Shown piece after piece: positions 2 through 16,220 of a stretch of 24,000 nucleotides of DNA (the stretch's first letter is position 1; the number at the start of each line of letters is the position of its first letter). Source of the stretch: Christensenellaceae bacterium. GTDB lineage: Bacteria > Bacillota > Clostridia > Christensenellales > Borkfalkiaceae. The translations under genes and the position numbers were made by a program. The notes under the pieces were generated by a model. That model searched no databases. It saw only the letters and a list, made by a program, of their open reading frames with translations, and was not told the origin of the DNA. The stretch lies in contig JAZLAE010000013.1 in NCBI GenBank assembly GCA_045613025.1, positions 38,486 to 62,485 on the forward strand. The letters are read 5' to 3'.

Positions 2-1597
2 GATGAAAACGGTAGGCTATCCGCTATCAACTTCAAAAACACCGAAACTTTCAACTTTGGTTTTGATATAGTTGATAAAATTGCCGAAAAATATCCAGAT
101 AAACTTGCAATGCTTCATCTTGATAAAAACAAAGTTGAACGCCGTTTTACCTTTAGGGATATCAAGCGTGCTTCTAACCAAGTGGCTAACTACTTTACTT
201 CGCTTGGCATCAAAAAAGGCGATAAAGTAATGCTTGTACTTAAACGCCATTACGAATTCTGGTTCTGTATGGTTGCCCTTCACAAACTTGGTGCGGTGGC
301 TATCCCTGCAACTAACCAACTTAAACAGCACGATTTTGAATACAGATATAACGCTGCGGGTGTAAAAGCAATCGTTTGTACGGCAGATGGCGATACTTAC
401 ACTTACGCTCAAAGCGCTGCTAAAAAATGCCCTCAAGTAGAAAAACTTTTAATGGTAGGTGGCGCTAAAGACGGTTGGCAAGATTTCAATAAAGAATATC
501 CGCTTTTCAGTGCTCACTTCTACCGCAATGAAGATACTTCTTGTGGTAACGATACTGCGCTTATGTTCTTTACTTCGGGTACAACTGGCAACCCTAAAAT
601 GGCTGCGCACAAACATACTTACGCGCTTGGTCATTTTGTAACCGCTAAGTACTGGCACTGTTGCGAACGCGACGGCTTACACTTAACTATTTCTGATACT
701 GGCTGGGGTAAATCACTTTGGGGTAAACTTTACGGTCAATGGCTTTGCGAAGGTGCGGTATTTGTTTACGACTTTGATAGGTTCGAAGAAAACGACATTT
801 TACCAATGTTTGCAAAATATAACATTACTACTTTCTGCGCTCCACCAACAATGCTCCGTATGCTTATTCGTGGCGACCTTTCTAAGTACGACCTTTCTTC
901 AATCCACCATATGACTACTGCTGGCGAAGCGTTAAACCCTGAAGTATTCAATAAATTTAAAGAAGCAACAGGCCTTGAAATTATGGAAGGTTTTGGCCAA
1001 ACCGAAACAACCCTTGCTATTGCTAACCTTTACGGCACTACACCAAAAATCGGTGCTATGGGTAAGGCAAATCCACAATACGACGTTGACGTAGTTGACC
1101 CAGATGGAAATAGTCTTCCTGCAGGTGAAGTTGGCGAAATCGTTATCCATACGGATAAAGCCGTTCCTTGCGGATTATTTAAAGAATATTATTGTGACGC
1201 TGAAAAAACTACCGATGCTTGGCACGATGGCTTATATCATACAGGCGATACCGCATGGCGCGATGAAGACGGATATTTCTGGTACGTTGGTAGGGTAGAC
1301 GACGTTATCAAGTCAAGTGGTTACCGTATCGGACCTTTCGAAATCGAATCGGTAATAATGGAACTACCTTACGTTTTAGAATGTGGTGTTTCTGCCGTTC
1401 CTGATGAAGTACGTGGCCAAGTAGTTAAAGCAAGCATCGTATTAACTAAAGGCACTGTAGGTTCTGAAGAATTAAAGAAAGAAATTCAACAATACGTTAA
1501 AGAACATACCGCTCCATACAAGTATCCAAGGGTAATCGTATTTAAAGACGAATTGCCAAAGACCATTAGCGGTAAAATCCAAAGAAACAAACTCTAA
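2..1597 (+). CDS. AMP-forming acyl-CoA synthetase, medium-chain (ACSM/MACS-like) family; 5' end cut by the window edge
   Basis: The frame is open from nt 2 (DENGRLSAINFKNTETFNFGFDIVDKIAEKYPDKLAMLHL...). This aligns with the region starting about residue 260 of the 2114..4402 paralog, so the Met at 110 in the ORF track is internal. Adenylate-forming motifs are present: FFTSGTTGNPK, TTAGEAL, GDTAWRDEDGYFWYVGRVDDVIKSSGYRIGPFEIES, PKTISGKIQR. Confidence 0.9.
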   Translation, partial: DENGRLSAINFKNTETFNFGFDIVDKIAEKYPDKLAMLHLDKNKVERRFTFRDIKRASNQVANYFTSLGIKKGDKVMLVLKRHYEFWFCMVALHKLGAVAIPATNQLKQHDFEYRYNAAGVKAIVCTADGDTYTYAQSAAKKCPQVEKLLMVGGAKDGWQDFNKEYPLFSAHFYRNEDTSCGNDTALMFFTSGTTGNPKMAAHKHTYALGHFVTAKYWHCCERDGLHLTISDTGWGKSLWGKLYGQWLCEGAVFVYDFDRFEENDILPMFAKYNITTFCAPPTMLRMLIRGDLSKYDLSSIHHMTTAGEALNPEVFNKFKEATGLEIMEGFGQTETTLAIANLYGTTPKIGAMGKANPQYDVDVVDPDGNSLPAGEVGEIVIHTDKAVPCGLFKEYYCDAEKTTDAWHDGLYHTGDTAWRDEDGYFWYVGRVDDVIKSSGYRIGPFEIESVIMELPYVLECGVSAVPDEVRGQVVKASIVLTKGTVGSEELKKEIQQYVKEHTAPYKYPRVIVFKDELPKTISGKIQRNKL

Positions 1598-1740
1598 ACG
1601 GCGTTATGCTTCGTTTCTGTAAAATTTATCGACCTTGGTGACCACAAAGGTCTACCAAGTCCGCTAAATTTTACGAGCCTTGCCTAACTTGTTTATAGTC
1701 CGTTTCTAACATATTTCTTATAGAAATAACCATTTACGGG
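1598..1740 (+). repeat. Structured intergenic repeat, copy A (long imperfect hairpin plus conserved 3' tail)
   Basis: Begins immediately after the stop codon. Nested stems surround the loop ACAAA: GTAAAATTT (1619-1627)/AAATTTTAC (1666-1674), CTTGGT (1634-1639)/ACCAAG (1654-1659), GACC (1640-1643)/GGTC (1649-1652). The flanks CGTTTCTG and CGAGCCTTGCCTAACTTGTTTATAG recur at 4403-4736 and 9307-9600, and in diverged form at 13920-13995. Confidence 0.75.
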
Positions 1741-1792
1741 TAGAATATTAAGTTTTTACTATATATAACTTTAAAATAAAAGATAAAAACGT

Positions 1793-1821
1793 TTGACACT
1801 TAATTAAAGGTGTGATAAAAT
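1793..1821 (+). promoter_or_regulatory. Sigma-A type promoter with extended -10
   Basis: TTGACA (1793-1798), 17-nt spacer, TGa (1813-1815), TAAAAT (1816-1821). It is correctly placed just upstream of the T-box leader. Confidence 0.7.
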
Positions 1822-1833
1822 ACTATAACAAAG

Positions 1834-2094
1834 ATGTTGATGAAGAGTCGTTCAAATATCGTTTTTTAGAGAGATAACGGTTGGTGCAAGTTATTAAAAG
1901 GGTATTGAATGTTGTAGCTTCTGAATCGGAAGGAAGAAAGCGTTGTCAAGTAGAACCTTCTCGTGATTGCTGCGTTAATGCATACGGGTTGTTAGACCTT
2001 GAGGGGCAGTATGTTACTGCAATTTGAGTGGTACCGCGGGTTTTAGATTTATCTATGCTCGTCTCAAAGTTTTATCTTTGAGACGAGCTTTTTT
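1834..2094 (+). promoter_or_regulatory. T-box leader (tRNA-sensing transcription attenuator); specifier most likely GUA (Val)
   Basis: Elements seen: GA/K-turn motif UGAUGAAG (1838-1845); AG bay AGAGAG (1868-1873); distal hairpin AUAAC-GGUUGGUGCAA-GUUAU (1874-1894). The specifier-side strand UUGUAG (1912-1917) lies directly 5' of CUUC (1918-1921), which pairs with GAAG (1842-1845). The T-box sequence is AAUUUGAGUGGUACCGCGG (2021-2039), followed by an intrinsic terminator. The UGGU bulge predicts an A73 discriminator tRNA. That fits Val, Leu or Ile but not Cys. Confidence 0.85.
2057..2094 (+). terminator. Intrinsic terminator of the T-box 1 expression platform
   Basis: GCTCGTCTCAAAG (2057-2069), loop TTTTAT, CTTTGAGACGAGC (2076-2088), then TTTTTT (2089-2094). 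Confidence 0.85.
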
Positions 2095-2113
2095 GTTTCA
2101 AACGGAGGAAATT

Positions 2114-4402
2114 ATGCAAAATATGATAGGTCTTGATTTAAAAATTCAAGAAATGGCAACAAGAATACGCGAACTTCGCGAAATCGTAGGTCTTTCCACC
2201 ATCGAAATGGCGGAAAAAACTGGCGTTACCGAAGAACAGTATATTCAATGCGAAAACGGTTTATCCGACTTAAACTTCGCTTTCATTTATAGGTGTGCTT
2301 TAGCGTTCAACGTTGACGTTACCGAAATTATCGAAGGTAAAAGCCCTAAACTTAGTTCCTACGTCTTAACAAGAAGCGGTAAAGGTCAAAAAATTGAACA
2401 AGCGCACGGTATGACTTATTATAACTTAGCGTCTACCTTTAGAAATCGTATTGCAGAACCACTTTACGTTGTTAGCGAATACGATGAAAGCGCGCAAAAT
2501 AAAGAAATTGAAGTTACCACTCACACTGGTCAAGAATTTGACTTAGTTGTTGAAGGTGAGTTAAAAATTAAAATCGGTGACCACGTTGAAGTTTTAAAAG
2601 CGGGCGACAGTATTTACTACAACTCTTCAACCCCACACGGTATGATTGCCGTTGGCGGTAAAGACTGTATTTTCTACGCTATCGTATTAAACCCAACTGG
2701 CGAACCTATCCCTGAACTTCAAAAACACCCTGAAAATAAACTTATTAAAGAAGTTGATAAAGACCACGAAAAAAGGGCGTACAGTAAGTTTATCGACACC
2801 GTTGAAGACGAAAACGGTACTCCGCTTTCAATTAACTTTAAAAATCAAGATAAATTTAACTTTGCTTACGATATCTTTGACGAAATCGCTAAAAAGCACC
2901 CAAGCAAACTTGCCCTTTTACATATTTCAAGGGATAAAACCGAACGTCGTTTCTCATTTAGCGATATTAAAAAATATTCTTGTAGGGCTGCTAACTACTT
3001 TAAGTCTTTAGGCATTAAAAAAGGCGATAGAGTTATGCTTGTTCTTGGTAGAGATTATCAATACTGGTACGCTATGCTTGGTTTAAACCGCTTAGGTGCT
3101 ATTGCAATCCCTGCGATGAACCAACTTTTAGCAAAAGACTTTGAATACCGCTTTAATAGTGCGGGCGTATCTGCAATTTTATGTACGGCGCAAGGCGGTT
3201 CTTCATTTCAAGTAGATATTGCAAGCGAAAAATGTCCAGGTCTTAAACATAAAATTATCGTTGGTGGCGAACGCGATGGTTGGAGAAATTTCGACGAAGA
3301 ATGCGAACTTTTCAGCACTCACTTCGAAAGAACTGAAGAAACCGCTGGTGGCGATGATATTATGCTTATGTTCTTTACTTCGGGAACTACAGGCTATCCA
3401 AAAATCGCAATGCACAACTATAAATACGCGCTTGGCCACTTCCACACCGCTAAATACTGGCACGCTGCAAGGCACGATGGTATCCACTTCACTATCAGTG
3501 ATACCGGCTGGGCTAAAGCAATGTGGGGTAAATATTACGGTCAATGGCTTGTTGAAGGGGCTATCTTCGTTTACGACTTTGATAGATTCAATGCAAGTGA
3601 TATTTTACCTATGTTTGCAAAATACAATATCACTACTTTCTGCGCTCCGCCTACAATGCTTCGTATGCTTGTTAAAGAAGATATTTCTCAATACGATTTA
3701 TCTTCAATAAGATATATGACTACCGCTGGTGAAGCACTTAACTTAGAAGTTTACAAACAATTCAAAGAAGCAACCGGTCTTTCTATTATGGAAGGCTTCG
3801 GTCAAACAGAATCAACCCTACTTATCGGCAATATGGTAGGTACTAATACTAAACCTGGTTCAATGGGTAAACCTGTACCTATTTACGATATCCAACTTTT
3901 AGATAGAGAAGGAAACCCTGTACCTAATGGTGAAACGGGCGAAATTTGTATCAATACTCAAAGTGGTAAACCAAACGGTCTTTTCTGCGGATATTATAAC
4001 GACGAAGAAAAAACTAAAGAAGTTTGGTACGATGGCTTCTACCACACTGGCGACCTTGCTTGGCGCGATGAAGACGGCTTCTATTGGTACGTTGGTAGGG
4101 CAGATGACGTTATTAAATCGTCTGGTTACCGTATCGGACCTTTCGAAATCGAATCGGTAATAATGGAACTCCCTTACGTTTTAGAATGTGGCGTTTCCGC
4201 TGCACCTGATGAAGTTCGTGGTCAAGTAGTTAAAGCAAGTATCGTTTTAACTAAAGGTACGGTAGGTACTGAAGAACTCAAAAAGGAAATTCAAGAATAC
4301 GTTAAAAAACGTACCGCCCCTTACAAATATCCACGTGTAGTTGTATTTAAGGACGAATTGCCTAAGACTATAAGCGGTAAAATCCAAAGAAATAAGTTAT
4401 AA
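2114..4402 (+). CDS. Fusion protein: XRE-family HTH + cupin domain + AMP-forming medium-chain acyl-CoA synthetase
   Basis: GGAGG (2104-2108) sits upstream of ATG 2114. The ORF-track start at 2024 runs through the T-box terminator and is rejected. The N-terminus, IRELREIVGLSTIEMAEKTGVTEEQYIQCENG, is a typical HTH_3 segment. Next comes a cupin beta-barrel segment (HTGQEFDLVVEGELKIKIGDHVEVLKAGDSIYYNSSTPHGM). From about residue 260 it continues as a full acyl-CoA synthetase (FFTSGTTGYPK, GDLAWRDEDGFYWYVGRADDVIKSSGYRIGPFEIES, PKTISGKIQR). There is one uninterrupted frame. Confidence 0.85.
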   Translation: MQNMIGLDLKIQEMATRIRELREIVGLSTIEMAEKTGVTEEQYIQCENGLSDLNFAFIYRCALAFNVDVTEIIEGKSPKLSSYVLTRSGKGQKIEQAHGMTYYNLASTFRNRIAEPLYVVSEYDESAQNKEIEVTTHTGQEFDLVVEGELKIKIGDHVEVLKAGDSIYYNSSTPHGMIAVGGKDCIFYAIVLNPTGEPIPELQKHPENKLIKEVDKDHEKRAYSKFIDTVEDENGTPLSINFKNQDKFNFAYDIFDEIAKKHPSKLALLHISRDKTERRFSFSDIKKYSCRAANYFKSLGIKKGDRVMLVLGRDYQYWYAMLGLNRLGAIAIPAMNQLLAKDFEYRFNSAGVSAILCTAQGGSSFQVDIASEKCPGLKHKIIVGGERDGWRNFDEECELFSTHFERTEETAGGDDIMLMFFTSGTTGYPKIAMHNYKYALGHFHTAKYWHAARHDGIHFTISDTGWAKAMWGKYYGQWLVEGAIFVYDFDRFNASDILPMFAKYNITTFCAPPTMLRMLVKEDISQYDLSSIRYMTTAGEALNLEVYKQFKEATGLSIMEGFGQTESTLLIGNMVGTNTKPGSMGKPVPIYDIQLLDREGNPVPNGETGEICINTQSGKPNGLFCGYYNDEEKTKEVWYDGFYHTGDLAWRDEDGFYWYVGRADDVIKSSGYRIGPFEIESVIMELPYVLECGVSAAPDEVRGQVVKASIVLTKGTVGTEELKKEIQEYVKKRTAPYKYPRVVVFKDELPKTISGKIQRNKL

Positions 4403-4530
4403 GCGTCGCAATACTGCGTTTACTGCTTCAAATTTTGACTTTGATGACCAACAAGGTCAATCAAATCCAAAATTTTCGCGAGCCTTGTCTTGCTTGCTTC
4501 TAACTCATTTCTTACATAAACAAATTATAA
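4403..4530 (+). repeat. Structured intergenic repeat, copy B
   Basis: Same layout as copy A: CTGCGTTTACTG, then stems TTTGAT (4440-4445)/ATCAAA (4460-4465) and GACC (4446-4449)/GGTC (4455-4458) around the loop AACAA. The outer stem is AAATTTTG/CAAAATTT, followed by the tail CGAGCCTTG. It ends with ...AAACAAATTATAA, which resembles the 3' end of the synthetase gene. Confidence 0.7.
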
Positions 4531-4655
4531 GCATCGTATTTCTGCGTTTACTGTAAAGTTTTTCGACCACGATAACCAAAAAGGTTTATCGTGTCCGTAA
4601 AACTTTCCGAGCCTTGCCTAACTTGTTTATAGTTCGTTTCTTAATCACACGAAAC
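4531..4655 (+). repeat. Structured intergenic repeat, copy C
   Basis: GCATCGTATTTCTGCGTTTACTG, then the outer stem AAAGTTTT/AAAACTTT, the mid stem CACGAT/ATCGTG and AACC/GGTT around the loop AAAAA, then CGAGCCTTGCCTAACTTGTTTATAGTTCGTTTCT. The stems differ in sequence from copies A and B but remain complementary. Confidence 0.7.
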
Positions 4656-4736
4656 AGGTAGGTCTATCTCAGCCTGTGGTCTACACGAGCCTTTCCTAAC
4701 TTGTTTCTAACTCATTTCTTACAGAAACAAACTAAA
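4656..4736 (+). repeat. Structured intergenic repeat, copy D (partial or degenerate)
   Basis: Keeps the tail CGAGCCTTTCCTAACTTGTTTCTAACTCATTTCTTACAGAAACAAACT, but its hairpin is different and shorter (CAGG...CCTG). The terminal AGAAACAAACT matches the last codons of the 2..1597 gene. Confidence 0.55.
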
Positions 4737-4782
4737 AGATAAAGTATGTTTGTTTTTAAAACTTATTAGTTTGAAATTTCTA

Positions 4783-4811
4783 TTGATAATCAATTTAAAG
4801 TCGATTACAAT
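4783..4811 (+). promoter_or_regulatory. Sigma-A type promoter for the NTPase/oxidoreductase/ilvE operon
   Basis: TTGATA (4783-4788), 17-nt spacer, TACAAT (4806-4811). Confidence 0.6.
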
Positions 4812-4849
4812 TAGATAAGGGGTTATTATATAAAGAAAACAACCACAGT

Positions 4850-4867
4850 TTACAAACTTGTTTGTAA
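4850..4867. promoter_or_regulatory. Perfect 8-bp inverted repeat, candidate operator
   Basis: TTACAAAC-TT-GTTTGTAA, about 40 nt downstream of the predicted -10. The 2-nt spacer is too short for an RNA hairpin loop, so a DNA operator is more likely. Confidence 0.45.
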
Positions 4868-4895
4868 CATCGTTAGTCGCAAGACTACACAGTTT

Positions 4896-4945
4896 TTGCG
4901 CTAGCAAAACACCGTTTGGCGCTAGCCAACTTTGGCAAAGCCAAA
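4896..4945 (+). promoter_or_regulatory. Three tandem short palindromes or hairpins with shared TTGSC/GSCAA arms in the operon leader
   Basis: TTGC-GCTA-GCAA (4896-4907), TTGGC-GCTA-GCCAA (4916-4929), TTTGGC-AAA-GCCAAA (4931-4945). They end 20 nt before the ATG at 4965. Confidence 0.45.
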
Positions 4946-4964
4946 ATATCGTTTAATAATAGTT

Positions 4965-5627
4965 ATGATAAACTTTAAAAGAATTACAATCTTATCAGGG
5001 CATTATGGTAGCGGAAAAACTAACGTTGCCGTAAACCTTGCCTTAGATTTAAAAAAGGTATATAATAAAGTTGCTATAGCGGATATCGACATAGTTAACC
5101 CTTACTTTAGAACCAAAGATAGCGAAGAACTATTGCAGTCTTTAGGCATAAAACTTATTTGTTCAGAGTACGCTAACTCTAACGTAGATATTCCTGCGCT
5201 TCCGCAAGAAATGTATAGCGTAACCGATGATAAGTCCGTACACGCCATACTTGACGTAGGCGGTGATGAACGCGGTGCTTTAGCGCTTGGCAGGTTAGTG
5301 CCTAAAATTAAAGAAGAAAACGATTACGATATGTTCTACGTAATAAATAAGTTTAGGCCGTTAACCCGTGATATTCCGTCGGCTATAGAAGTTTTTGATG
5401 AAATCGAAAACGCGTGCAAACTTAAATTTACGGGAATAATAAATAACTCAAACTTAGGCAAAGAAACTACCCCTGAAGACGTAATATCTTCAGTAGAAAT
5501 TGCCGAAAACTTAGCAAAAACTTTAAACTTACCACTTATTTTCACTTCGGTTACCGAAGAGTTGTATGGCAAAGTAAAAGATAAAATTCAAAACGTGTAT
5601 CCACTTGTGATGCAAAAAAAATTATAA
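4965..5627 (+). CDS. P-loop NTPase (MinD/ParA/CooC-like superfamily), function unknown
   Basis: A Walker A motif lies near the N-terminus (ILSGHYGSGKTNVAVNLA), and a DVGGDE segment resembles Walker B/switch. ATG 4965 is preferred over the TTG at 4932 because it puts the P-loop at the usual distance from the N-terminus. No clear SD is visible. Confidence 0.7.
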   Translation: MINFKRITILSGHYGSGKTNVAVNLALDLKKVYNKVAIADIDIVNPYFRTKDSEELLQSLGIKLICSEYANSNVDIPALPQEMYSVTDDKSVHAILDVGGDERGALALGRLVPKIKEENDYDMFYVINKFRPLTRDIPSAIEVFDEIENACKLKFTGIINNSNLGKETTPEDVISSVEIAENLAKTLNLPLIFTSVTEELYGKVKDKIQNVYPLVMQKKL

Positions 5628-5639
5628 AGGAGTATAGTT

Positions 5640-5846
5640 ATGGCTGTATTAACTTTTAAAACTGATAAATGTAAAGGCTGTGGCTTGTGCGTTGGCGTTT
5701 GCCCTAAAAACGTACTTGCTCTTGCAACAGACAAAATTAACGCAAAAGGTCATCACCCTGTTGAAGCGGTTAACCCTGAAGCGTGCATCGGTTGTGCTTT
5801 CTGTGCAACAATGTGTCCTGATTGTATAATAAAGGTAGAAAGATAG
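5640..5846 (+). CDS. 2x[4Fe-4S] ferredoxin-type delta subunit of 2-oxoacid:ferredoxin oxidoreductase
   Basis: Two cluster motifs, CKGCGLCVGVCP and CIGCAFCATMCP. AAGGAG RBS. 68 aa. Confidence 0.85.
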   Translation: MAVLTFKTDKCKGCGLCVGVCPKNVLALATDKINAKGHHPVEAVNPEACIGCAFCATMCPDCIIKVER

Positions 5847-5858
5847 GAGTATAAAATT

Positions 5859-6920
5859 ATGGCAGATAAAGTTTTAATGAAAGGCAATGAAGCAATTGCA
5901 GAAGCGGCTATCATTGCAGGTTGTAGACATTATTTCGGCTATCCTATTACGCCACAAACAGAAATCGCGGCGTATATGGCTAAAAAGATGCCAAAAATCG
6001 GCGGTACTTTCTTACAAGCAGAAAGTGAAGTTGCCGCTATCAATATGGTATACGGTGTAGCGTCAACCGGTTATAGGGTTATGACGTCGTCTTCAAGCCC
6101 TGGTATTTCGTTAAAGGGCGAAGGCTTATCTTACTTAGCGGGTGCTGATTTACCAGCGCTTGTTGTTAACGTACAAAGGGGCGGTCCTGGTCTTGGTGGT
6201 ATTCAACCATCACAATCAGACTATTTCCAAGCAACTAAGGGTGGCGCACACGGTGACTTCCGTATGTTAGTTTTAGCCCCTGCATCAGTTCAAGAAATGG
6301 CAGAACTTACAGTTAAAGGTTTTGACCTTGCCGATAAATACCGTATGACTACTATGATTTTAGCCGACGGTACTATGGGTCAAATGATGGAACCAGTTTC
6401 TTTAGATTTCAAGGTAGAACCTCCTGTTGAAAAACCTTGGGCGGCTACTGGTACTAATATGCAACGTAAGCACAACGTAATCAACTCTCTTTACTTAAAG
6501 CCTGACCAACTTGAAAAAACTAACTTTGAAAGATTTGAACGTTACGAAATTATCAAAGAAAACGAAGTTATGTACGAAGAATACTTAATTGATGACGCTG
6601 AAATCTGCGTTGTTGCATTTGGTATTGCATCAAGGGTTGCTAAAAACGCTATTAACGAAGCAAGAAGCCAAGGCATTAAAGTTGGGTTAATTAGACCTAT
6701 CACACTTTGGCCTTTCCCTGAAAAAATCATTAACAAGGTTGCAGATAAAGTTAAATCGTTTATCTCTGTAGAACTTTCTATGGGTCAAATGATTGAAGAT
6801 ATCCGTTTAGCAGTAAACGGCAAAGCACCTGTTACTTTGTGTAACCGTTCGGGCGGTATGATACCTTCACCTGAACAAGTTTTAGAAGCAATCAAAAACG
6901 CTAACGGAGGTAAAAACTAA
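5859..6920 (+). CDS. 2-oxoacid:ferredoxin oxidoreductase alpha subunit (VorB/KorA-like)
   Basis: The N-terminus LMKGNEAIAEAAIIAGCRHYFGYPITPQTEI is typical of the alpha subunits of this family. The size is about 350 aa, and the gene lies in the order delta-alpha-beta-gamma. Confidence 0.85.
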   Translation: MADKVLMKGNEAIAEAAIIAGCRHYFGYPITPQTEIAAYMAKKMPKIGGTFLQAESEVAAINMVYGVASTGYRVMTSSSSPGISLKGEGLSYLAGADLPALVVNVQRGGPGLGGIQPSQSDYFQATKGGAHGDFRMLVLAPASVQEMAELTVKGFDLADKYRMTTMILADGTMGQMMEPVSLDFKVEPPVEKPWAATGTNMQRKHNVINSLYLKPDQLEKTNFERFERYEIIKENEVMYEEYLIDDAEICVVAFGIASRVAKNAINEARSQGIKVGLIRPITLWPFPEKIINKVADKVKSFISVELSMGQMIEDIRLAVNGKAPVTLCNRSGGMIPSPEQVLEAIKNANGGKN

Positions 6921-7660
6921 TGGTAGTATTCGATAAACCAAAGTCACTTGTTGACGTTCCTTTACATTATTGCCCAGGTTGTACACACGGTATCGTTCAC
7001 CGTTTAGTTGCCGAAGTTATCGACGAACTTGGTATCGAAGGTAAAACTATCGGTATTGCACCCGTTGGTTGTGCGGTTATGGCTTACGATTATTTCGCTT
7101 GCGATATGATTGAAGCAGCGCACGGTAGAGCGCCTGCTGTTGCTACTGGTGTTAAGCGCGCGTTACCTGATAACGTAGTATTCACTTACCAAGGCGACGG
7201 CGACTTAGCGTCAATCGGTATGTCTGAAACAGTTCACTCTGCTGCAAGAAACGAAAACATCACTATTATCTTTATCAACAACGCAATTTACGGTATGACT
7301 GGTGGTCAAATGGCACCTACTTCTCTTCCTGGTCAAGTAACTCAAACTTCACCTTATGGTAGAGATACTAACCTTTGCGGTTTCCCTATCAAAGTTTGCG
7401 AAATGCTTTCACAACTTGACGGCCCTGAATATCTTGAAAGGGTAGCGGTTAACAACGTTAAAAATATCAAAAACGCTAAAAAAGCAATCAAGAAAGCCTT
7501 CCAAAACCAAATTGATAAAAAAGGTTTCTCTCTTGTAGAAGTTGTTTCAAGTTGCCCAACTAACTGGGGCTTAACTCCTGAAAAAGCATTACAATGGATT
7601 GATGAAAAAATGATACCTTACTATCCTTTAGGCGTATACAAGGATAGGTCGGCGAAATAA
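6920..7660 (+). CDS. 2-oxoacid:ferredoxin oxidoreductase beta subunit (TPP-binding)
   Basis: TPP motif GDGDLASIGMSETVHSAARNENITIIFINNAIYGMTGGQ, and an N-terminal CPGC cluster ligand region. The start shares one nucleotide with the upstream stop (TAATG). Confidence 0.85.
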   Translation: MVVFDKPKSLVDVPLHYCPGCTHGIVHRLVAEVIDELGIEGKTIGIAPVGCAVMAYDYFACDMIEAAHGRAPAVATGVKRALPDNVVFTYQGDGDLASIGMSETVHSAARNENITIIFINNAIYGMTGGQMAPTSLPGQVTQTSPYGRDTNLCGFPIKVCEMLSQLDGPEYLERVAVNNVKNIKNAKKAIKKAFQNQIDKKGFSLVEVVSSCPTNWGLTPEKALQWIDEKMIPYYPLGVYKDRSAK

Positions 7661-7673
7661 GGGGGCAATTAAA

Positions 7674-8210
7674 ATGAACGAAAAATATTTATTTGCCGGT
7701 TTCGGCGGTCAAGGTATATTATTCTCTGGTAAAGTTTTAGCGTATAAAGGTCTTACTGATGGCAAAAACGTAAGTTGGCTTCCATCATACGGCCCTGAAA
7801 TGCGTGGTGGTACTGCAAGTTGTAGCGTTATCGTAAGTGATAACCCTATCGGTTCACCTATCGTTTCTAATCCTGAAATTTTAATAGCAATGAACCTTCC
7901 ATCTCTTGATTTATACGAAGATAGAGTAACAAGTGGCGGTATGATTTTCGTTGACTCATCACTTGTTGATAGAAAGGTTAATAGAACTGACGTAAAAGCA
8001 TTTTATATCCCTGCAACAAAACTTGCATCGGATAACGGAATTCCAACCCTTGCAAATATGATTATTATGGGTAAGGTTTTAGCGGAAACTAACGGCTTTA
8101 ACGATGAAAACGGCGTAAGAAACGCTTTAACTAAAGTTATTTCAGCAAAGCGTGCCGATATGTTAGAAGTTAACCTTAACGCTATGAAGTTGGGTAGAGA
8201 CTTCAAATAA
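7674..8210 (+). CDS. 2-oxoacid:ferredoxin oxidoreductase gamma subunit
   Basis: [17 protein letters not shown]...[18 protein letters not shown] is typical of gamma subunits. GGGGG-type RBS. Confidence 0.85.
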
Positions 8211-8241
8211 GATTACGCTTTTGATTTAAAGGAGAATTATT

Positions 8242-9306
8242 ATGGAAATTAAAATCACTAAAACTACAAGTCCTGCGGTTAAACCAGACAGTAGTATTTT
8301 AGGTTTCGGTAAATACTTTACCGACCATATGTTTATAATGGATTATTCGGCTGACAAAGGTTGGCACGATGCAAGAATAGTACCGTTTGGTAGAATTGAT
8401 ATTCACCCAGCATCAACAGTACTTCACTACGGCTCTGAAATCTTTGAAGGTTTAAAAGCATATAGAACAAAAGATGGTAGCGTACAACTTTTCCGTCCGC
8501 TTGAAAACATTAGAAGAATGAACCGCTCAGCAGAACGTATGTGTTTACCTGAAATCCCTGAAGATATGGCACTTGAAGCGTTAACTACCTTTATCAAAAT
8601 GGAACAAGACTGGGTTCCATCTGCACCAGGTACTTCACTTTATATCCGTCCGTTTATGTTCGGTAACGATGAAACTTTAGGTGTTCACGCCGTTAAAAAC
8701 GCTAAATTTGTTATTATAACTTCACCTGTTGGTAGTTATTATAAAGAAGGCATTAACCCTGTTAAAATTATGATTGAATCTGAAGACGTACGTGCCGTTC
8801 GCGGTGGTACGGGCGAAGCAAAATGCGGTGGTAACTACGCTGCAAGTAATAGGGCAGGCGAAAGGGCAGAAAAGAAAGGTTACTCTCAAGTATTATGGCT
8901 TGACGGTGTTGAAAGAAAATACATCGAAGAAGTTGGCGCAATGAACGTTATGTTCAAAATCGCAGGCGAAATCGTTACGCCTAAACTTGCAGGTTCAATT
9001 CTTCCAGGTATTACAAGAAAATCTATCCTTGAACTTTTACAAAAAGAAGGTTATAAGGTTTCTGAAAGACTTATCTCTGTTGATGAACTTGCCGAAGCAA
9101 TGAAAAACGGCACGCTTGAAGAAGCATGGGGTTGCGGTACTGCAGCCGTTGTTTCACCTATCGGTGAACTTTGCTATCAAGACGTTAAATACTCTATCAA
9201 CAACGGTAAAATCGGCGAAGTTACTCAACACTTATACGATACTTTAACAGGTATTCAATGGGGTAATAAGGAAGATGTATTTAATTGGGTTTACCCAATT
9301 AAATAA
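8242..9306 (+). CDS. ilvE: Branched-chain amino acid aminotransferase (fold type IV)
   Basis: About 354 aa, with family-typical segments YGSEIFEGLKAYR, LYIRPFMFG, EAKCGGNYAAS, GITRKSILEL, GTAAVVSPI. AAAGGAG RBS. Confidence 0.85.
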   Translation: MEIKITKTTSPAVKPDSSILGFGKYFTDHMFIMDYSADKGWHDARIVPFGRIDIHPASTVLHYGSEIFEGLKAYRTKDGSVQLFRPLENIRRMNRSAERMCLPEIPEDMALEALTTFIKMEQDWVPSAPGTSLYIRPFMFGNDETLGVHAVKNAKFVIITSPVGSYYKEGINPVKIMIESEDVRAVRGGTGEAKCGGNYAASNRAGERAEKKGYSQVLWLDGVERKYIEEVGAMNVMFKIAGEIVTPKLAGSILPGITRKSILELLQKEGYKVSERLISVDELAEAMKNGTLEEAWGCGTAAVVSPIGELCYQDVKYSINNGKIGEVTQHLYDTLTGIQWGNKEDVFNWVYPIK

Positions 9307-9440
9307 GCCGTTATTTGCTGCGTCTATCTGCGTTTCTGCAAAGTGGTTTTGATTTCAATGACCAACAAGGTCTATTTCATCCAAAACCATTTGCGAGCCT
9401 TGATATACTTGCAACTAACGCCTTATTACGTACTTAATTT
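9307..9440 (+). repeat. Structured intergenic repeat, copy E
   Basis: Starts right after the ilvE stop: CTGCGTTTCTG, outer stem GCAAA(G)TGGTTTT (9338-9350)/AAAACCATTTGC (9383-9394), GACC-AACAA-GGTC core, then CGAGCCTTG... The mid stem is partly decayed. Confidence 0.65.
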
Positions 9441-9554: not shown

Positions 9555-9600
9555 GAGCCTTGCCTAACTTGTAACTAACGCCTTATTACGTAAATTTAAT
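9555..9600 (+). repeat. Structured-repeat tail fragment, copy F
   Basis: GAGCCTTGCCTAACTTGTAACTAACGCCTTATTACGTA duplicates 9395-9432. It has only the tail and no hairpin. Confidence 0.6.
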
Positions 9601-9684: not shown

Positions 9685-9713
9685 TTGACAAAGTTATAAA
9701 ATAGTGTTAATAT
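9685..9713 (+). promoter_or_regulatory. Sigma-A type promoter with extended -10
   Basis: TTGACA (9685-9690), 17-nt spacer, TGt (9705-9707), TAATAT (9708-9713). Same architecture as the promoter at 1793. Confidence 0.7.
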
Positions 9714-9726
9714 ACTTAAAAATAAA

Positions 9727-9989
9727 CGCGATGAAGCGAAATAGTAAGTAAATTTTCTTGCTTTTAGAGAGATGCTGGTTGGTGCAAGGCGTTAGAAGAA
9801 TTTTACCGAACTCGTCGCAGAGCGGTTGCCGTGAAAGGTTAGTAGTGGCAAACGGGAACTCCCGTAAAAGAGTTAGGTGTGTTTGCACCAAAGTGCGCTT
9901 TCTTAAGCGAATAAGAGTGGTACCGCGGAAATAGTTTATCCTAAACGTTTTCGTCTCTTTAAGAAGTAAGGAGACAAAAGCGTTTTTTT
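9727..9989 (+). promoter_or_regulatory. T-box leader, specifier CUC (Leu)
   Basis: GA motif GCGAUGAAGCGAA (9728-9740); AG bay AGAGAG (9766-9771); distal loop GGUUGGUGCAA (9777-9787). The specifier loop 3' side is GAA-CUC-G (9808-9814), directly 5' of UCGC (9815-9818), which pairs with GCGA (9736-9739). The T-box sequence is AAUAAGAGUGGUACCGCGG (9911-9929), followed by a terminator. The UGGU bulge is compatible with A73 of tRNA-Leu. Confidence 0.88.
9946..9989 (+). terminator. Intrinsic terminator of the T-box 2 expression platform
   Basis: CGTTTTCGTCTC (9946-9957) pairs with GAGACAAAAGCG (9971-9982), followed by TTTTTTT (9983-9989). CGGAAA (9925-9930) can pair with TTTTCG (9948-9953) as the antiterminator. 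Confidence 0.8.
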
Positions 9990-10023
9990 ATTTCTATTAC
10001 CACAAAATTAAAGGAGATTTATT

Positions 10024-11409
10024 ATGAAAAAAATCGATATTATTGACGTTACGCTTAAAAAACTCTCAGAAGAACGCGAAGTTGCGCTTTTATTCCGTGA
10101 AAAATCTGCTATTGCTACAAAAGCCGATTTATTAGGTGCTGACGTTATTGAACTTCCTGCAGTTAAAAACTTCCGTGAAGATGCAATTATCTATAAAACT
10201 ATTTCTCAAAACGTTCAAAACGCTATTTTAACAATCCCTGTTGGCTTTGATAAAGAAAGCGTTGCTAACGCTTGGGAATGTGTTAAATTTGCTAAAAAAC
10301 CACGCTTACAAATCGAACTTCCAGTGTCTACTATTCAAATGGAATATACTTACCACGTTAAGCAAGAAAAAATGCTTGATAAAATTGTTGCGCTTATTAA
10401 AGAAGCAAAAAATTATTGTGAAGACGTAGAGTTTTCTGCGCTTGATGCAACAAGGGCTGACGTTAATTTCTTATTAACTGCAGTTAAAACTGCTGAAGAA
10501 AACGGCGCTACCGTTATTAACGTTTGTGATAACGCGGGCAACTCAACCCCTGAAGAAATCGCTTCGCTTGTTGAAAAAATTAAAGGCGTTGTTTCTATTC
10601 CACTTTACGTTCAAGTATCTAATCGCGTATTTATGGGCGTTGCTTCGGCTTTTTCTGCTATCACTAAAGGCGCAGACGGTTTAAAATGCGCTATTGATGG
10701 TAAAGACGTTCTTATTACTGGCGAAATTTGTGATGCCGTTTCAGTTTGCGGTGCAACTATCGGTGCAAAAATCAATCTTAACACTACTAAAATTCACGCA
10801 AGCATCGAAGATGTCCTTTCTAAAATCAATCATAAAGACTTATCCGCTACAAGCATAAGTGATAAAAACAAAATTTTACTTGACAGCGACGCTACTTTAA
10901 AAGACGTATTAACTTCTGCTACCGCACTTGGCTATGACCTTACTGAGTCTGATGCGGGTAAAGTATTTAATGCGCTTGTTAAGGTTTGTGAGAAAAAAGG
11001 TGCTATCGGTTCAAAGGAATTTGAAGCGCTTATTGCAAGTAACGCAATGCAAGCACCATCTACTTACCACTTTGAAACTTACACAACAACAAGCAGTAAC
11101 GTTTCAACTTCTATGTCGCAAGTAACTTTAAAAAGAAACGGAGAAATCATCTCTGGCGTTAGTTCGGGCGACGGTCCTATCGACTCTGTTTTCCGTGCTA
11201 TAGAACAATGTATCGGTCACCACTACGAACTTGATGATTACCAAGTTCAATCGGTAACCGAAGGTAAAGAAGCGTTAGGTTCAGCGCTTGTAAGACTTCG
11301 CAACAACGGCAAACTTTATTCTGGTAACGGTACTTCAACCGATATCGTTGGTGCAAGTATTAGGGCGTATATTAACGCGCTTAATAAAATCGTAGCCGAG
11401 GAGGCGTAA
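10024..11409 (+). CDS. LeuA/HMGL-like protein with degenerate catalytic motifs and an intact LeuA C-terminal regulatory (dimerisation) domain
   Basis: AAGGAGA RBS. The fold-level resemblance to 2-isopropylmalate synthase is clear: IDIIDVTL..., VEFSALDATR, INVCDNAGNSTPEE, KGADGLKCAIDG. The C-terminal part, GDGPIDSVFRAIEQ...YQVQSVTEGKEALGSALVRL...GNGTSTDIVGASIRAYINALNKI, is a typical LeuA_dimer domain. However, DTTLRDGEQ is replaced by DVTLKKLSE, the HxH metal site by QVS, and no HESGIHQDG-like motif is seen. Confidence 0.75.
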   Translation: MKKIDIIDVTLKKLSEEREVALLFREKSAIATKADLLGADVIELPAVKNFREDAIIYKTISQNVQNAILTIPVGFDKESVANAWECVKFAKKPRLQIELPVSTIQMEYTYHVKQEKMLDKIVALIKEAKNYCEDVEFSALDATRADVNFLLTAVKTAEENGATVINVCDNAGNSTPEEIASLVEKIKGVVSIPLYVQVSNRVFMGVASAFSAITKGADGLKCAIDGKDVLITGEICDAVSVCGATIGAKINLNTTKIHASIEDVLSKINHKDLSATSISDKNKILLDSDATLKDVLTSATALGYDLTESDAGKVFNALVKVCEKKGAIGSKEFEALIASNAMQAPSTYHFETYTTTSSNVSTSMSQVTLKRNGEIISGVSSGDGPIDSVFRAIEQCIGHHYELDDYQVQSVTEGKEALGSALVRLRNNGKLYSGNGTSTDIVGASIRAYINALNKIVAEEA

Positions 11410-11410
11410 T

Positions 11411-13873
11411 ATGAAAATAGTATTTTCAACCAAAAACGTAATAAGGGCGTCATTTTTAGATGCTTGTGCTTACGCTTACGATTACGGTTTTGAAGGCTTT
11501 GAAATATACGATGCGGTAAAAGAAAGAATCGACCATTACGACAGTATTTTAAGGCGTGATAAAGTTGCCGATAGCAAGCGAAAACTTGTAAACAGGGGTC
11601 TTTCTGTTTCGGCACTTCGTATGCCTGACGTTATCGAAAGTCAAAACGTTACTAAAGAATTAGTAGAAAAATACGTTGAAATGGCAAGTTTAGCGGGTGT
11701 TTCAAACGTTATCGTTAGCATAAATGATAAAGTTTCGTTTGATATTTTAAACGAAAAACTTACCCCTGCAGTAAAACTTGCTGAAAGGTTAGACGTAAAT
11801 ATCTTATTTGAAACTATAGGTTACCTTTCTAATACTGAAAACGTTATAGAAATTATCAACTATTTCTCATCGGCGGTAATAGGTGCTTCTTGGAACGTAA
11901 GGGGTACTTACTTCGGCGCAAAAGAATCGGCAGAGTCTACCATTAAAACGCTTGGCGCGTATATCAAATACGTGCGCCTTGGCGATATGAAAGGTGATAA
12001 AACCGTGCTTATCGGCGAAGGTGATTTAGACGTAGAAAAACTTTTAAACGCACTTTCTTCACTCAACTACGACGGCTTTATTTGTTGTGCTTGGAACGAA
12101 GAAATTAACGATGCCGATATAGTACTCACTCACTTTGCAAACTACGTTTCTTCGCTTAACCGCGATAAGAAAACTAATACCGAAAAATATTACAATAGGG
12201 ATAAATCGGGTTCTTTCGTATGGAAAAAATACGACGTTATCGATGCAACTTTCTCACAAGTTTTAGATACGATGGTAGAAAACTATCCCGACCAATACGC
12301 TTTTAAATACCCTACTTTAGACTATACGCGCACTTACGAACAATTCCGTCGCGACGTTGACGAATGCGCCGCAGCGCTTATTTCTCTTGGCGTAAAAGCG
12401 GGCGACCACGTTGCCGTTTGGGCAACTAACGTGCCTGAGTGGTTTATTACTTTCTGGGCAACTACTAAAATCGGTGCGGTACTTGTTACAGTTAACACGG
12501 CTTATAAAATTCACGAAATCGAATACTTACTTAAACAATCGGATACTCACACCCTTGTTATGATTGAGTATTGCAAAGATATCAACTATAAAGAAATTAT
12601 CGAAGAACTTTGCCCTGAACTTAAAACTTTGGAAGCGGGCAAACCTTTATATTCTAAATCGTTACCGTTCCTTAGAAACGTTGTAACCGTTGGCTTTAAT
12701 ATGGACGGCTGTTTAACTTGGGAACAAATGTTATCGCGTTCTTCACTTATTCCTATTGAAGAAGTAAGGCGTCGTGCATCACTTGTTAAACCGGACGACG
12801 TTTGCAATATGCAATACACTTCAGGTACAACGGGTTTCCCTAAAGGCGTTATGCTTACACACCGCAATATCGTAAACAACGGTAAAACTATCGGTGACAG
12901 AATGGATTTATCTACTGCCGACCGTATGATGATTCAAGTACCTATGTTCCACTGTTTTGGTATGGTGCTTTCAATGACTTCTATGATGACTCACGGTGGT
13001 ACGCTTTGTCCTATTCCGTACTTCTCACCAAAATCATCACTTGCTTGCGTAAACGATGAAAGAATCACTTGCTTTAACGGTGTTCCTACAATGTTTATTG
13101 CAATGTTCAACCACCCTGATTTTTCTAAAACTGACTTTAGTTATATGCGTACGGGTATTATGGCGGGTGCTAACTGTCCTGCCGACTTAATGCGCCGTGC
13201 ATCAGTTGAAATGAACATGCGCGAAATCATTTCAGTTTACGGTCAAACGGAAGCCGCACCTGGCTGTACAATGGGCGAAGTTAATGAAGACTTAGACCAT
13301 AGGGTAGAAACTGTAGGTAGTGCTTTCCCTGGTGTTGAATGTAAGATAATCGACCCTGAAACAGGTAAAGAACTCCCTGACGGCGAAAGCGGTGAATTCG
13401 TTGCGCGTGGCTTTAATATTATGAAAGGCTACTACAAAATGCCTGAAGCAACTGCACAAGCCATTGATAAAGACGGTTGGCTTCACTCTGGCGATATTTG
13501 TATGAGAACGCCTGACGGTTACTATAAAGTAACTGGTAGGCTTAAAGATATGATTATCCGTGGTGGCGAAAACCTTTATCCGCGTGAAATTGAAGAATTC
13601 TATTTAACTAACCCAAAAGTTAGGGATATTCAAGTAGTTGGCGTGCCTGATGAAAGATACGGCGAAGAATGTTGCGCTTGGATTATTCTTCATAAAGGCG
13701 AAACTGCCGATGAAAACGAAATGCGCGAATACGGTAACGCGTCTATTGCAAGGCATAAAGTTCCAAGATATTTCGTGTTCGTTAATGAATTCCCTATGAA
13801 CGCTGCGGGCAAAATTTTAAAATACAAAATGCGTGAAAGTTCTATTGAAATGTTAGGACTTAAAAAGGCTTAA
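11411..13873 (+). CDS. Fusion protein: xylose-isomerase-like (AP endonuclease 2 family) TIM barrel + FadD-type AMP-forming acyl-CoA ligase
   Basis: A GAGGAGG RBS lies inside the end of the upstream gene, and the ATG is 1 nt after its stop. The N-terminal ~250 aa has TIM-barrel family segments (GFEGFEIYD, LAGVSNVIV, LAERLDVNILFETIG, YIKYVRLGD). From about residue 270 it is a complete adenylate-forming ligase (MQYTSGTTGFPKGVMLTH, YGQTEA, GWLHSGDICMRTPDGYYKVTGRLKDMIIRGGENLYPREIEE, NAAGKILK). Confidence 0.8.
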   Translation: MKIVFSTKNVIRASFLDACAYAYDYGFEGFEIYDAVKERIDHYDSILRRDKVADSKRKLVNRGLSVSALRMPDVIESQNVTKELVEKYVEMASLAGVSNVIVSINDKVSFDILNEKLTPAVKLAERLDVNILFETIGYLSNTENVIEIINYFSSAVIGASWNVRGTYFGAKESAESTIKTLGAYIKYVRLGDMKGDKTVLIGEGDLDVEKLLNALSSLNYDGFICCAWNEEINDADIVLTHFANYVSSLNRDKKTNTEKYYNRDKSGSFVWKKYDVIDATFSQVLDTMVENYPDQYAFKYPTLDYTRTYEQFRRDVDECAAALISLGVKAGDHVAVWATNVPEWFITFWATTKIGAVLVTVNTAYKIHEIEYLLKQSDTHTLVMIEYCKDINYKEIIEELCPELKTLEAGKPLYSKSLPFLRNVVTVGFNMDGCLTWEQMLSRSSLIPIEEVRRRASLVKPDDVCNMQYTSGTTGFPKGVMLTHRNIVNNGKTIGDRMDLSTADRMMIQVPMFHCFGMVLSMTSMMTHGGTLCPIPYFSPKSSLACVNDERITCFNGVPTMFIAMFNHPDFSKTDFSYMRTGIMAGANCPADLMRRASVEMNMREIISVYGQTEAAPGCTMGEVNEDLDHRVETVGSAFPGVECKIIDPETGKELPDGESGEFVARGFNIMKGYYKMPEATAQAIDKDGWLHSGDICMRTPDGYYKVTGRLKDMIIRGGENLYPREIEEFYLTNPKVRDIQVVGVPDERYGEECCAWIILHKGETADENEMREYGNASIARHKVPRYFVFVNEFPMNAAGKILKYKMRESSIEMLGLKKA

Positions 13874-14055: not shown

Positions 14056-14862
14056 ATGATAAATGGAAAATACTACGCGATAGACGCGCATTGCCATATC
14101 TATCCCGAAAAAATCGCCAAACTTGCCGTTGACCATACAGATAATTTTTATAGCGAACACTCATATAACAAAGGCACGCTTGAAGATTTAATTTCGGCAA
14201 GTGATATCGCGGGTGTTGATAAATGTATTATTCAATCGGTGGCAACAACGCCTAAACAAGTTCAAAGCATAAACAAATTTATTAGCGATAGCGTGCAAGC
14301 GCACGGGGATAGATTTGTTGGCTTAGGCACTATCCATCCACGCTCTTTAGATATTGAAGGGGATATAGAACATTTAATAGAACTTGGCTTAAAGGGTATA
14401 AAAATCCACCCTGATATTCAAAACTTCAAGGTGGACGACGACGGCTATAAACAAGCGTATAAAATTTGCGAAAAGAAAGGCTTACCCGTTTTAATGCACA
14501 CGGGGGATAATAGATACGATAATTCTAATCCAAATAGAATTATACCTATATTAAATGAGTTTAAAAATTTAATGGTAGTAGGCGCACACTTTGGCGGTTG
14601 GTCTATTTGGGAAGAAGCAAGTGAAAAGTATAAAAACTACGATAACTTTTTCGTGGATACTTCTTCAAGTTTACACTACATCGATTTAGATACGGCTAAA
14701 ATGATAGTTGATAACTACGGCGTTGATAAACTTATGTTTGCAACAGATTACCCTATGTGGAACGCAAAAGACGAAATCGAAACCATTTTAAAACTTAACT
14801 TAACTGAAGACGATTACATTAAAATCTTTTCTAAAAACGCCGAAAAGGTGTACAAAATATAA
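14056..14862 (+). CDS. Amidohydrolase-2 family TIM-barrel metal-dependent hydrolase
   Basis: N-terminal HxH (IDAHCHIYPE), later His/Asp ligand candidates (KIHPD, LMHTGD, GAHFGG, FATDYP). AGGA RBS. 268 aa. Confidence 0.75.
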   Translation: MINGKYYAIDAHCHIYPEKIAKLAVDHTDNFYSEHSYNKGTLEDLISASDIAGVDKCIIQSVATTPKQVQSINKFISDSVQAHGDRFVGLGTIHPRSLDIEGDIEHLIELGLKGIKIHPDIQNFKVDDDGYKQAYKICEKKGLPVLMHTGDNRYDNSNPNRIIPILNEFKNLMVVGAHFGGWSIWEEASEKYKNYDNFFVDTSSSLHYIDLDTAKMIVDNYGVDKLMFATDYPMWNAKDEIETILKLNLTEDDYIKIFSKNAEKVYKI

Positions 14863-16084: not shown

Positions 16085-16111
16085 AAACGTGTCTCCTAAT
16101 AACTATAATAA

Positions 16112-16140: not shown

Positions 16141-16169
16141 TAAAATACGTGATTATTTTAAAAAAACAA

Positions 16170-16198: not shown

Positions 16199-16220
16199 CT
16201 TTGCTATAAGGAACAAGATT

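Follow-up and report, generated by a model that had tools for sequence, protein, structure and literature searches.

We analyzed a 24,000-nt stretch of contig JAZLAE010000013.1 from a Christensenellaceae bacterium (assembly GCA_045613025.1, positions 38,486 to 62,485 of the forward strand), which we call the window. Its first part carries a cluster of genes for two AMP-forming acyl coenzyme A (acyl-CoA) ligases, A and B, a four-subunit 2-oxoacid:ferredoxin oxidoreductase, and the branched-chain amino acid aminotransferase IlvE, followed by a separate operon that contains a third ligase. Both ligase B and the third ligase lie behind T-boxes, leader RNAs that switch genes on when the cognate tRNA is uncharged (PMC11477304). 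We think it likely that the cluster is a salvage system, induced by starvation, that turns branched short-chain acids into branched-chain amino acids. All features described below are on the plus strand unless noted otherwise.

The cluster opens with the two ligases. Ligase A (positions 2 to 1597) is partial: the window holds its C-terminal 531 amino acids with the Pfam domains AMP-binding and AMP-binding_C, and its N-terminus is off-window. Ligase B (2114 to 4402) is complete at 762 amino acids and carries HTH_19/HTH_3, Cupin_2, AMP-binding, and AMP-binding_C. The two are 69% identical over 531 amino acids. An initial annotation, made from the sequence alone, had described two tandem AMP-forming synthetases on this strand, and we found both where it had placed them. 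What had to be corrected was their architecture, since an XRE-type helix-turn-helix (HTH) domain plus a cupin domain is fused to the N-terminus. This fusion is seen in ligase B with Pfam and is known for ligase A through its relatives, where the orthologs are full-length HTH-cupin-ligase fusions of about 755 amino acids behind a T-box with an AUC specifier.

Ligase B is preceded by a T-box leader at 1828 to 2069, which matched Rfam RF00230 with 105.7 bits (E 1e-22); the gathering score of 93 bits was our threshold for membership. A sigma-70-type promoter precedes the leader at 1793 to 1821 (TTGACA-17-TAAAAT with an extended TG, 11 of 12 consensus matches), and a TTGACA -35 box is recurrent upstream of the orthologous leaders. 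The covariance-model alignment places GUA, a Val codon, in the specifier slot (1914-1916). It is followed by G1917 and then by one strand of the specifier-closing helix, CUUC (1918-1921), which pairs with a GAAG beside the GA motif. The T-box bulge is UGGU (2029-2032), the U of which pairs with an A73 discriminator base. The leader ends in an intrinsic terminator at 2057 to 2094, a 13-bp stem (2057-2088) followed by a T-run (-22.8 kcal/mol, z score -6.8), and the terminator competes with the antiterminator: its 5' arm is shared with the antiterminator, whose 3' arm it overlaps. The earlier claim of a T-box with a GUA specifier and a UGGU bulge ahead of the complete synthetase was therefore borne out by both the Rfam score and the covariance-model slot.

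To place this leader in context, we used 83 related loci, 80 of them from a scan of species-representative genomes and 3 from an exact-protein look-up. The scanned loci belong to uncultured Acutalibacteraceae, Christensenellaceae, Oscillospiraceae, and unclassified Clostridia; their ligases are 71-79% identical to that of the window, and according to their record titles, the relatives come from samples of rumen, cecum, colon, rectum, and faeces. We located all T-box motifs in these loci and identified the gene downstream of each. Specifiers were called by pattern as the triplet one base ahead of the specifier-closing helix. We found that the specifier followed the gene. Leaders of ligase B had GUA in 76 of 78 cases, and leaders of the upstream paralog, ligase A, had AUC (Ile) in all 54 true leaders (as the first pattern hit in 49 and in proper context in 5 more). 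One further leader that was first classed with ligase A proved to be a misclassified Val leader and was left out of the 54. Leaders of the third-ligase operon, whose first gene is LeuA-like, had CUC or CUG (Leu) in 17 of 20 by pattern, in addition to the one in the window, which was read by the covariance model. The bulge was UGGU in 161 of 161 leaders found.

The register of these specifiers depends on the helix beside them. RNAalifold, applied to a MAFFT alignment, recovered the distal helix of Stem I only. Therefore, we tested the specifier-closing helix with a hand-written structure. This helix was 98.9% paired and covaried between the classes of leader (GAAG/CUUC, GGAA/UUCC, and GCGA/UCGC), and when the structure was slid by 1-3 columns, pairing fell to 36-41%. 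In an alignment of 46 leaders, the specifier triplets were constant while the adjoining bases varied, the AGAGA bulge and GA motifs were invariant, and the helices were 95-99% paired with covariation. The covariance-model alignments likewise show a Stem I with a GA (K-turn) motif, a codon-bearing specifier loop, the AGAGA bulge, and a GGUNGGUG-type distal loop. Thus, the Val reading of the specifier, which the initial annotation had offered as the best one, is robust, as its register is held by a covarying helix. The T-box leaders of the relatives scored 94-118 bits on RF00230; the Val leader of one locus, L005, was not reported by Rfam at the gathering score. In L005 and in L014, whose ligases A are 92% and 88% identical to the window's ligase A, the Rfam model itself puts AUC in the specifier slot of the ligase A leader. 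An Ile T-box had been predicted ahead of the upstream paralog, and it is present in the relatives; the window's own copy would be off-window.

We then compared the ligases with characterized enzymes. The best NCBIfam model for both was the equivalog MbcS (NF047394), at 449.5 bits for ligase A and 442.9 bits for ligase B, and the ligase B domain matched PDB 3ETC, the MacsMa enzyme of Methanosarcina acetivorans, with 625 bits. These are the closest characterized relatives of the ligase domain, and both prefer 2-methylbutyrate and/or isobutyrate: the preferred substrate of MacsMa is 2-methylbutyrate (PMC10455477), while MbcS of Staphylococcus aureus favors 2-methylbutyrate and isobutyrate and is poor with isovalerate (PMC10026030). 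Aligned with 3ETC, the ligase has the Macs-type residues in the motifs FGQTE, AKYW, and LPKTISGK. A Gly (in FGQTE) replaces the acetate-limiting Trp of acetyl-CoA synthetase (Acs), and the alternative Trp of MacsMa (in AKYW) is retained; the roles of these two Trp residues and of the catalytic Lys in PKTxSGK are those given in PMC10455477. Unlike MacsMa and MbcS, the ligases of the window add an N-terminal HTH-cupin part of about 230 amino acids, occur as two paralogs, are under T-box control, and have an oxidoreductase and IlvE as neighbors.

Across about 130 sequences, the Ile and Val paralogs had only three fixed differences in the ligase domain, at positions 467 (Gly/Ala), 470 (Leu/Met), and 572 (Ala/Gly). 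Ligase B carries Ala467, Met470, and Gly572. Ligase A has Gly at the equivalent of position 467 (DTGW-x-K), and MacsMa has Gly there as well, like the Ile paralog. Alignment with the VT pair of Acs suggests that position 467 lines the acyl pocket. These kinships, together with the T-box specifiers, point to a preference for small branched acids, and we propose ligase A as the 2-methylbutyrate ligase of an Ile arm and ligase B as the isobutyrate ligase of a Val arm.

Downstream of ligase B lie a gene for a P-loop NTPase (4965 to 5627), the oxidoreductase, and ilvE. The delta subunit of the oxidoreductase (5640 to 5846) is a 68-amino-acid ferredoxin for two [4Fe-4S] clusters that matches the Pfam Fer4 families and has two CxxCxxCxxxCP motifs. 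The alpha subunit (5859 to 6920) matches POR_N and PFOR_II and scored 547.7 bits on NCBIfam NF005507, the VorB subfamily, against a cut-off of 399. The beta subunit (6920 to 7660; TPP_enzyme_C) binds thiamine diphosphate, and the gamma subunit (7674 to 8210) matches POR, so that the full set of subunits is present. IlvE (8242 to 9306) exceeded the cut-offs of both NF009897 (492.5 bits versus 307) and TIGR01123 (407.4 versus 250). The order of synthetase, delta-alpha-beta-gamma oxidoreductase, and ilvE on one strand stands as the initial annotation gave it; the P-loop gene and a repeat-filled gap in front of that gene were additions to it.

This order is conserved among the relatives. For the oxidoreductase and IlvE, we counted only loci in which 5.2 kb or more of sequence lay downstream, 55 in all. 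The full oxidoreductase was found in 49 of them and IlvE in addition in 48, in the order ligase, P-loop, delta, alpha, beta, gamma, IlvE, with intergenic gaps of about 10 nt where the contigs are tight. In three loci IlvE was displaced yet still within the same block. Ligase A was directly upstream of ligase B in 61 loci. The P-loop gene followed ligase B, between it and delta, in 74 of all 83. Its product matches Pfam CbiA and ParA weakly, is distantly like CbiA/ParA/Mrp proteins, and has the conserved motifs GHYGSGKTN, DLDIVNPYFR, GGDxxGA, and NNSNLG. We considered whether it might be a NifH-like, ATP-driven electron donor and rejected this, as it has no invariant cysteine and is without the signature Lys of the deviant Walker A motif.

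The next operon has its own promoter (9685 to 9713; TTGACA-17-TAATAT with an extended TG) and its own T-box leader (9722 to 9992), which scored 134.9 bits on Rfam (match 9722-9961, E 3e-30). The covariance-model alignment reads its specifier as CUC (9811-9813); the UGGU is at 9918-9921, and the terminator is a hairpin at 9943-9985 with a T-run to 9992 (-18.7 kcal/mol, z score -4.6). The first gene (10024 to 11409) encodes a LeuA-like protein with an HMGL-like barrel and a LeuA_dimer domain (residues 330-456, E 7.7e-32). This protein misses all the NCBIfam cut-offs for 2-isopropylmalate synthase, with a best score of 258.9 bits versus 532. RDGEQ, near the N-terminus, and HxH(N)D are the catalytic and metal-binding motifs of 2-isopropylmalate synthase, and in alignment with 3rmj, RDGEQ has become KKLSE and HCHND has become VSNRV. 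The same losses are shared by 35 LeuA-like orthologs (39-74% identity). Because the degenerate state is conserved in this way, the sequences argue that the LeuA-like protein is a maintained pseudo-enzyme and not a decaying gene.

The second gene of the operon (11411 to 13873) encodes an 820-amino-acid fusion of a xylose-isomerase-like TIM barrel (AP_endonuc_2) and an AMP-forming acyl-CoA ligase (AMP-binding). It scored 670.7 bits on NCBIfam NF009233, below the cut-off of 832, and its ligase subfamily differs from that of A and B. It is probably the isovalerate ligase of a Leu arm; a separate type of ligase for isovalerate fits the poor use of isovalerate by MbcS. In 37 loci, the pair of LeuA-like and TIM-barrel-ligase genes was no more than 10 kb away, on the downstream side or, in divergent orientation, on the upstream side. 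The earlier suggestion that 9685-13873 supplies the Leu arm thus held for its T-box, which reads CUC here and CUC or CUG in relatives, and needs to be qualified for its LeuA-like protein, which is catalytically degenerate. An Amidohydrolase_2-family gene (14056 to 14862; Pfam PF04909) comes next. It is often found 3' of the TIM-barrel-ligase gene, in many relatives, and the distant PDB relatives of its product include non-oxidative decarboxylases.

From these observations we propose the following pathway. When Val is short, uncharged tRNA-Val would base-pair with the leader at two places, at the GUA specifier and, by its free NCCA end, at the UGGU bulge. The antiterminator would thereby be stabilized, and RNA polymerase would pass the terminator at 2057-2094. 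Ligase B would then convert isobutyrate to isobutyryl-CoA, with ATP going to AMP and pyrophosphate; the four-subunit oxidoreductase, running in reverse, would form 2-oxoisovalerate from isobutyryl-CoA, CO2, and reduced ferredoxin; and IlvE would transaminate 2-oxoisovalerate to valine. The parallel unit upstream, an AUC (Ile) T-box and ligase A, would serve 2-methylbutyrate, and the third unit, a CUC (Leu) T-box and the TIM-barrel-fused ligase, would probably serve isovalerate. The oxidoreductase and IlvE would be common to all three arms.

The probable direction of the pathway is suggested by its control and by its first step. AMP-forming ligases spend two ATP equivalents per thioester and cannot conserve energy. 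Because induction is by uncharged tRNA and because the AMP-forming activation is irreversible, the flow would be from acid to acyl-CoA to 2-oxoacid to amino acid. Degradation of Val is unlikely, since inducing it during Val starvation would be self-defeating. That the cluster serves salvage rather than fermentation had been the central idea of the initial annotation, and the comparative evidence supports it: the specifiers match their cargo, the gene order is kept, and the ligases are akin to MacsMa and MbcS.

One feature of this genome bears on whether the whole set is under one control. In the relatives, ligase B and the P-loop gene are about 10 nt apart. In the window there is instead a gap of about 530 nt (4403 to 4964), filled with a structured repeat that is peculiar to this genome and is present there in 2-3 copies. 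Copies of the repeat lie at 1614-1707, 4390-4740 (the 2-3 copies), 9330-9432, and 9555-9592, on the plus strand only; ligase A, ligase B, and IlvE each have the repeat directly after their stop codon. The unit is a long hairpin (e.g., 1619-1673; -25.5 kcal/mol, z score -3.8) followed by the conserved sequence CGAGCCTTGCCTAACTTGT, and between copies there are compensatory changes (CTTGG/CCAAG, TTTGA/TCAAA, and CACGA/TCGTG). Against Rfam the repeat had no match beyond a chance-level carA hit (E 0.92), and none of the 83 related loci held an exact copy of its conserved box, GAGCCTTGCCTAACTTG. The gap also contains a promoter-like site at 4783-4811.

Several of our observations weigh against the proposed salvage pathway. 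The gap, with its repeats and its promoter-like site, may uncouple the oxidoreductase and IlvE from the T-box in this genome, so that T-box control of these genes is less certain here than in the relatives; transcription from the Val leader would have to continue across the gap. Also, the Ile T-box gates ligase A only, and the oxidoreductase and IlvE are behind the Val leader. In starvation for Ile only or for Leu only, the oxidoreductase and IlvE would therefore have to come from basal read-through or from additional gene copies. In seven loci (L019, L020, L033, L052, L059, L061, and L068), the Val T-box and ligase B stand alone among unrelated neighbors, with no oxidoreductase or IlvE within 8-10 kb. 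The ligases are far under the MbcS equivalog cut-off of 850 bits and so are not MbcS orthologs by the NCBI criterion. About half of the Ile leaders (related loci L008-L083) have a C after the AUC specifier in place of the usual conserved purine, which fits poorly, and the pathway offers no explanation for the chemistry of three proteins of the Leu operon.

The oxidoreductase adds to these difficulties. None of its beta, gamma, and delta subunits reaches an NCBIfam equivalog cut-off, and among solved structures its closest relatives are 2-oxoglutarate or broad-range enzymes (1yd7, 8ys5, and 6n2n). For the beta subunit the nearest structures are the 2-oxoglutarate:ferredoxin oxidoreductase (OGOR) beta subunits 8ys5 and 6n2n, and as a whole the oxidoreductase is closest to Kor/OGOR-type enzymes. 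Because the nearest structures are OGOR-type and the equivalog cut-offs are missed, its predicted branched-chain specificity rests on gene context and on the VorB subfamily name, which is derived from annotation.

We weighed three other explanations against this evidence. In the first, the ligases would activate exogenous branched acids to primers for branched-chain fatty acids during a shortage of branched-chain amino acids, as MbcS does in S. aureus, and the oxidoreductase and IlvE would not run in reverse. The rank of MbcS as the best-scoring model is in keeping with this, as are the seven loci in which the Val T-box and ligase B have no neighboring oxidoreductase or IlvE, and the MbcS pathway matters under limiting Ile, Leu, and Val (PMC13584741). 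However, most genomes have the ligase in one tight operon with the oxidoreductase and IlvE, and if these worked oxidatively, their induction by uncharged tRNA-Val would destroy scarce valine. Moreover, three amino-acid-specific tRNA sensors suit the supply of amino acids and are hard to explain for lipid homeostasis. We consider a role in lipid priming improbable.

If the oxidoreductase instead acted on 2-oxoglutarate or pyruvate, its place beside a T-box-controlled ligase and IlvE would have no meaning for a pathway. Its solved relatives and the origin of the VorB name would agree with such a substrate, but 48 of 55 loci, with ligases 71-79% identical to the window's, retain the order from ligase to IlvE, and where IlvE has moved, in three loci, it has stayed inside the same block. 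We give this explanation little credence. Least credible of all is a catabolic cluster in which Val, Ile, and Leu are broken down to acyl-CoAs by IlvE and the oxidoreductase, in the manner of a Stickland oxidation, and the ligases handle the acid products: this type of oxidoreductase with IlvE is the usual oxidative route in amino-acid-fermenting Clostridia, and the class is reversible, yet the ligases consume two ATP equivalents without conserving energy, and there is no ptb/buk or ADP-forming synthetase gene within the window. Induction by uncharged tRNA is also the wrong signal for degrading the amino acid concerned (PMC11477304).

The salvage pathway remains the reading we favor, and its ligases raise the question of what the fused HTH-cupin module does. 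The N-terminal 215 amino acids of ligase B weakly match PuuR and 1y9q-type HTH-cupin proteins. Compared with PuuR-type XRE-HTH plus cupin regulators, the likeness is weak, the module is fused to a ligase, and its DNA binding is putative. Over the module (2114-2800 in the window), the Ile and Val paralogs show 12 fixed differences. We looked for an operator among gapped palindromes and 8-mers in the 145 nt upstream of 152 leaders and found none; only the -35 boxes and the T-box motifs recur. As a separate observation, in Parabacteroides/Bacteroides the module is encoded by its own gene, annotated as a cupin domain-containing protein, directly upstream of the ligase gene (L084 8013-10235; L085 7379-9596). 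When annotated relatives in cultured organisms were sought in a plasmid collection, only such split cupin and ligase pairs turned up, from Bacteroidales, in arg/pro neighborhoods and without an oxidoreductase.

Enzymes that combine catalysis with DNA binding, such as PutA and BirA, are known as trigger enzymes. We tentatively suggest, as a possibility that we ourselves rather doubt, that each arm of the salvage pathway is of this kind and is under two layers of control, with the T-box reporting tRNA charging and a protein sensor, joined to the committed, ATP-consuming ligase, responding either to the end product or to the substrate acid. For the Ile and Val arms, the candidate sensor is the fused XRE-HTH and cupin, which might bind DNA as well. 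In the Leu arm, it may be the dead LeuA, which keeps its leucine-binding domain and would be the partner of the TIM-barrel-ligase. If so, de novo ilv/leu synthesis may have disappeared from these lineages, which would have retained the old Leu T-box and leuA as a sensor and would now depend on branched acids produced by their neighbors.

The rest of the window (14897-23969) has a class I/II aminotransferase gene on the minus strand and then an apparent aromatic amino acid operon. Its 3-deoxy-D-arabino-heptulosonate 7-phosphate (DAHP) synthase was confirmed by Pfam; prephenate dehydrogenase, aroB, aroA, aroC, pheA, and an aroE-aroK fusion were recognized by visual inspection of the translations. 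The 355 nt ahead of this operon gave no Rfam hit. In the related loci we also came across a 6S RNA (L002 3182-3384, minus strand), a ZMP/ZTP riboswitch (L002 6127-6212, plus strand), a 5S rRNA (L014 14173-14289), and a UUC (Phe) T-box (L058, about 950-1200). The riboswitch precedes an IMP dehydrogenase gene, which is followed by one for formate-tetrahydrofolate ligase.

How does the cluster compare with known systems? The T-boxes for branched-chain amino acids in Firmicutes (Bacillus subtilis ilv-leu and ileS/valS/leuS; Clostridioides difficile CD0989, a 2-isopropylmalate synthase) share with it the RF00230 fold, the specifier, the UGGN, and the terminator/antiterminator, as well as the purpose, which is to provide more of an amino acid when its tRNA is uncharged. 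They differ in cargo: tRNA ligases, transporters, or de novo pathways in those systems, and an acyl-CoA ligase, a ferredoxin oxidoreductase, and a transaminase here. In addition, the Ile, Val, and Leu leaders here each gate a different ligase within one neighborhood.

The predicted chemistry also has precedents. The closest solved relatives of alpha and beta are CO2-fixing 2-oxoglutarate:ferredoxin oxidoreductases (8ys5, named 2-oxoglutarate synthase, and 6n2n). We take the 6n2n-type enzyme to be the oxidoreductase of the reverse tricarboxylic acid cycle and thus a precedent for this class forming C-C bonds from CO2. Unlike these, the oxidoreductase of the window has separate subunits, a delta ferredoxin, and an alpha subunit in the VorB subfamily, and its predicted substrate is a branched acyl-CoA. 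Methanogens, with their anabolic 2-oxoisovalerate oxidoreductases, are a further example of reductive carboxylation. In rumen bacteria, the formation of Val, Ile, and Leu from isobutyrate, 2-methylbutyrate, and isovalerate was established by the labelling work of Allison and co-workers, 1966-1971, as cited in PMC7356843. Going by that citation, the predicted chemistry (activation, ferredoxin-dependent carboxylation, and transamination) and the habitat are the same. The work as cited there is one of physiology and labelling, without genes or regulation in these lineages, whereas here candidate genes and their regulation come from sequence alone.

In the searchable literature, which is incomplete, so that a prior description is possible, we found no publication in which T-boxes are connected with acyl-CoA ligases, with ferredoxin oxidoreductases, or with the salvage of branched acids, and none that assigns the responsible genes or their regulation in these lineages. 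Such cargo was also absent from the T-box regulon surveys and the C. difficile riboswitch catalogue that we examined. As T-boxes, the leaders are typical of RF00230, and the chemistry belongs to classical physiology; the novelty lies in assigning genes to that chemistry within one conserved neighborhood that carries Ile, Val, and Leu T-boxes.

Since the 1960s it has been recognized that branched-chain volatile fatty acids serve rumen and gut anaerobes as growth factors and as precursors of amino acids. The cluster offers a testable set of genes for their use: two proposed branched-acid ligases, an oxidoreductase, IlvE, and a third ligase, with the T-box specifiers acting as a built-in annotation that labels the arms as Ile, Val, and Leu. 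It also offers three architectures for study, namely, the HTH-cupin-ligase fusion, the dead LeuA, and the TIM-barrel-ligase fusion. The cluster could be used as a metagenomic marker for cross-feeding of branched acids. If our reading is true, it would extend the cargo of T-boxes to a salvage route that works by carbon fixation.

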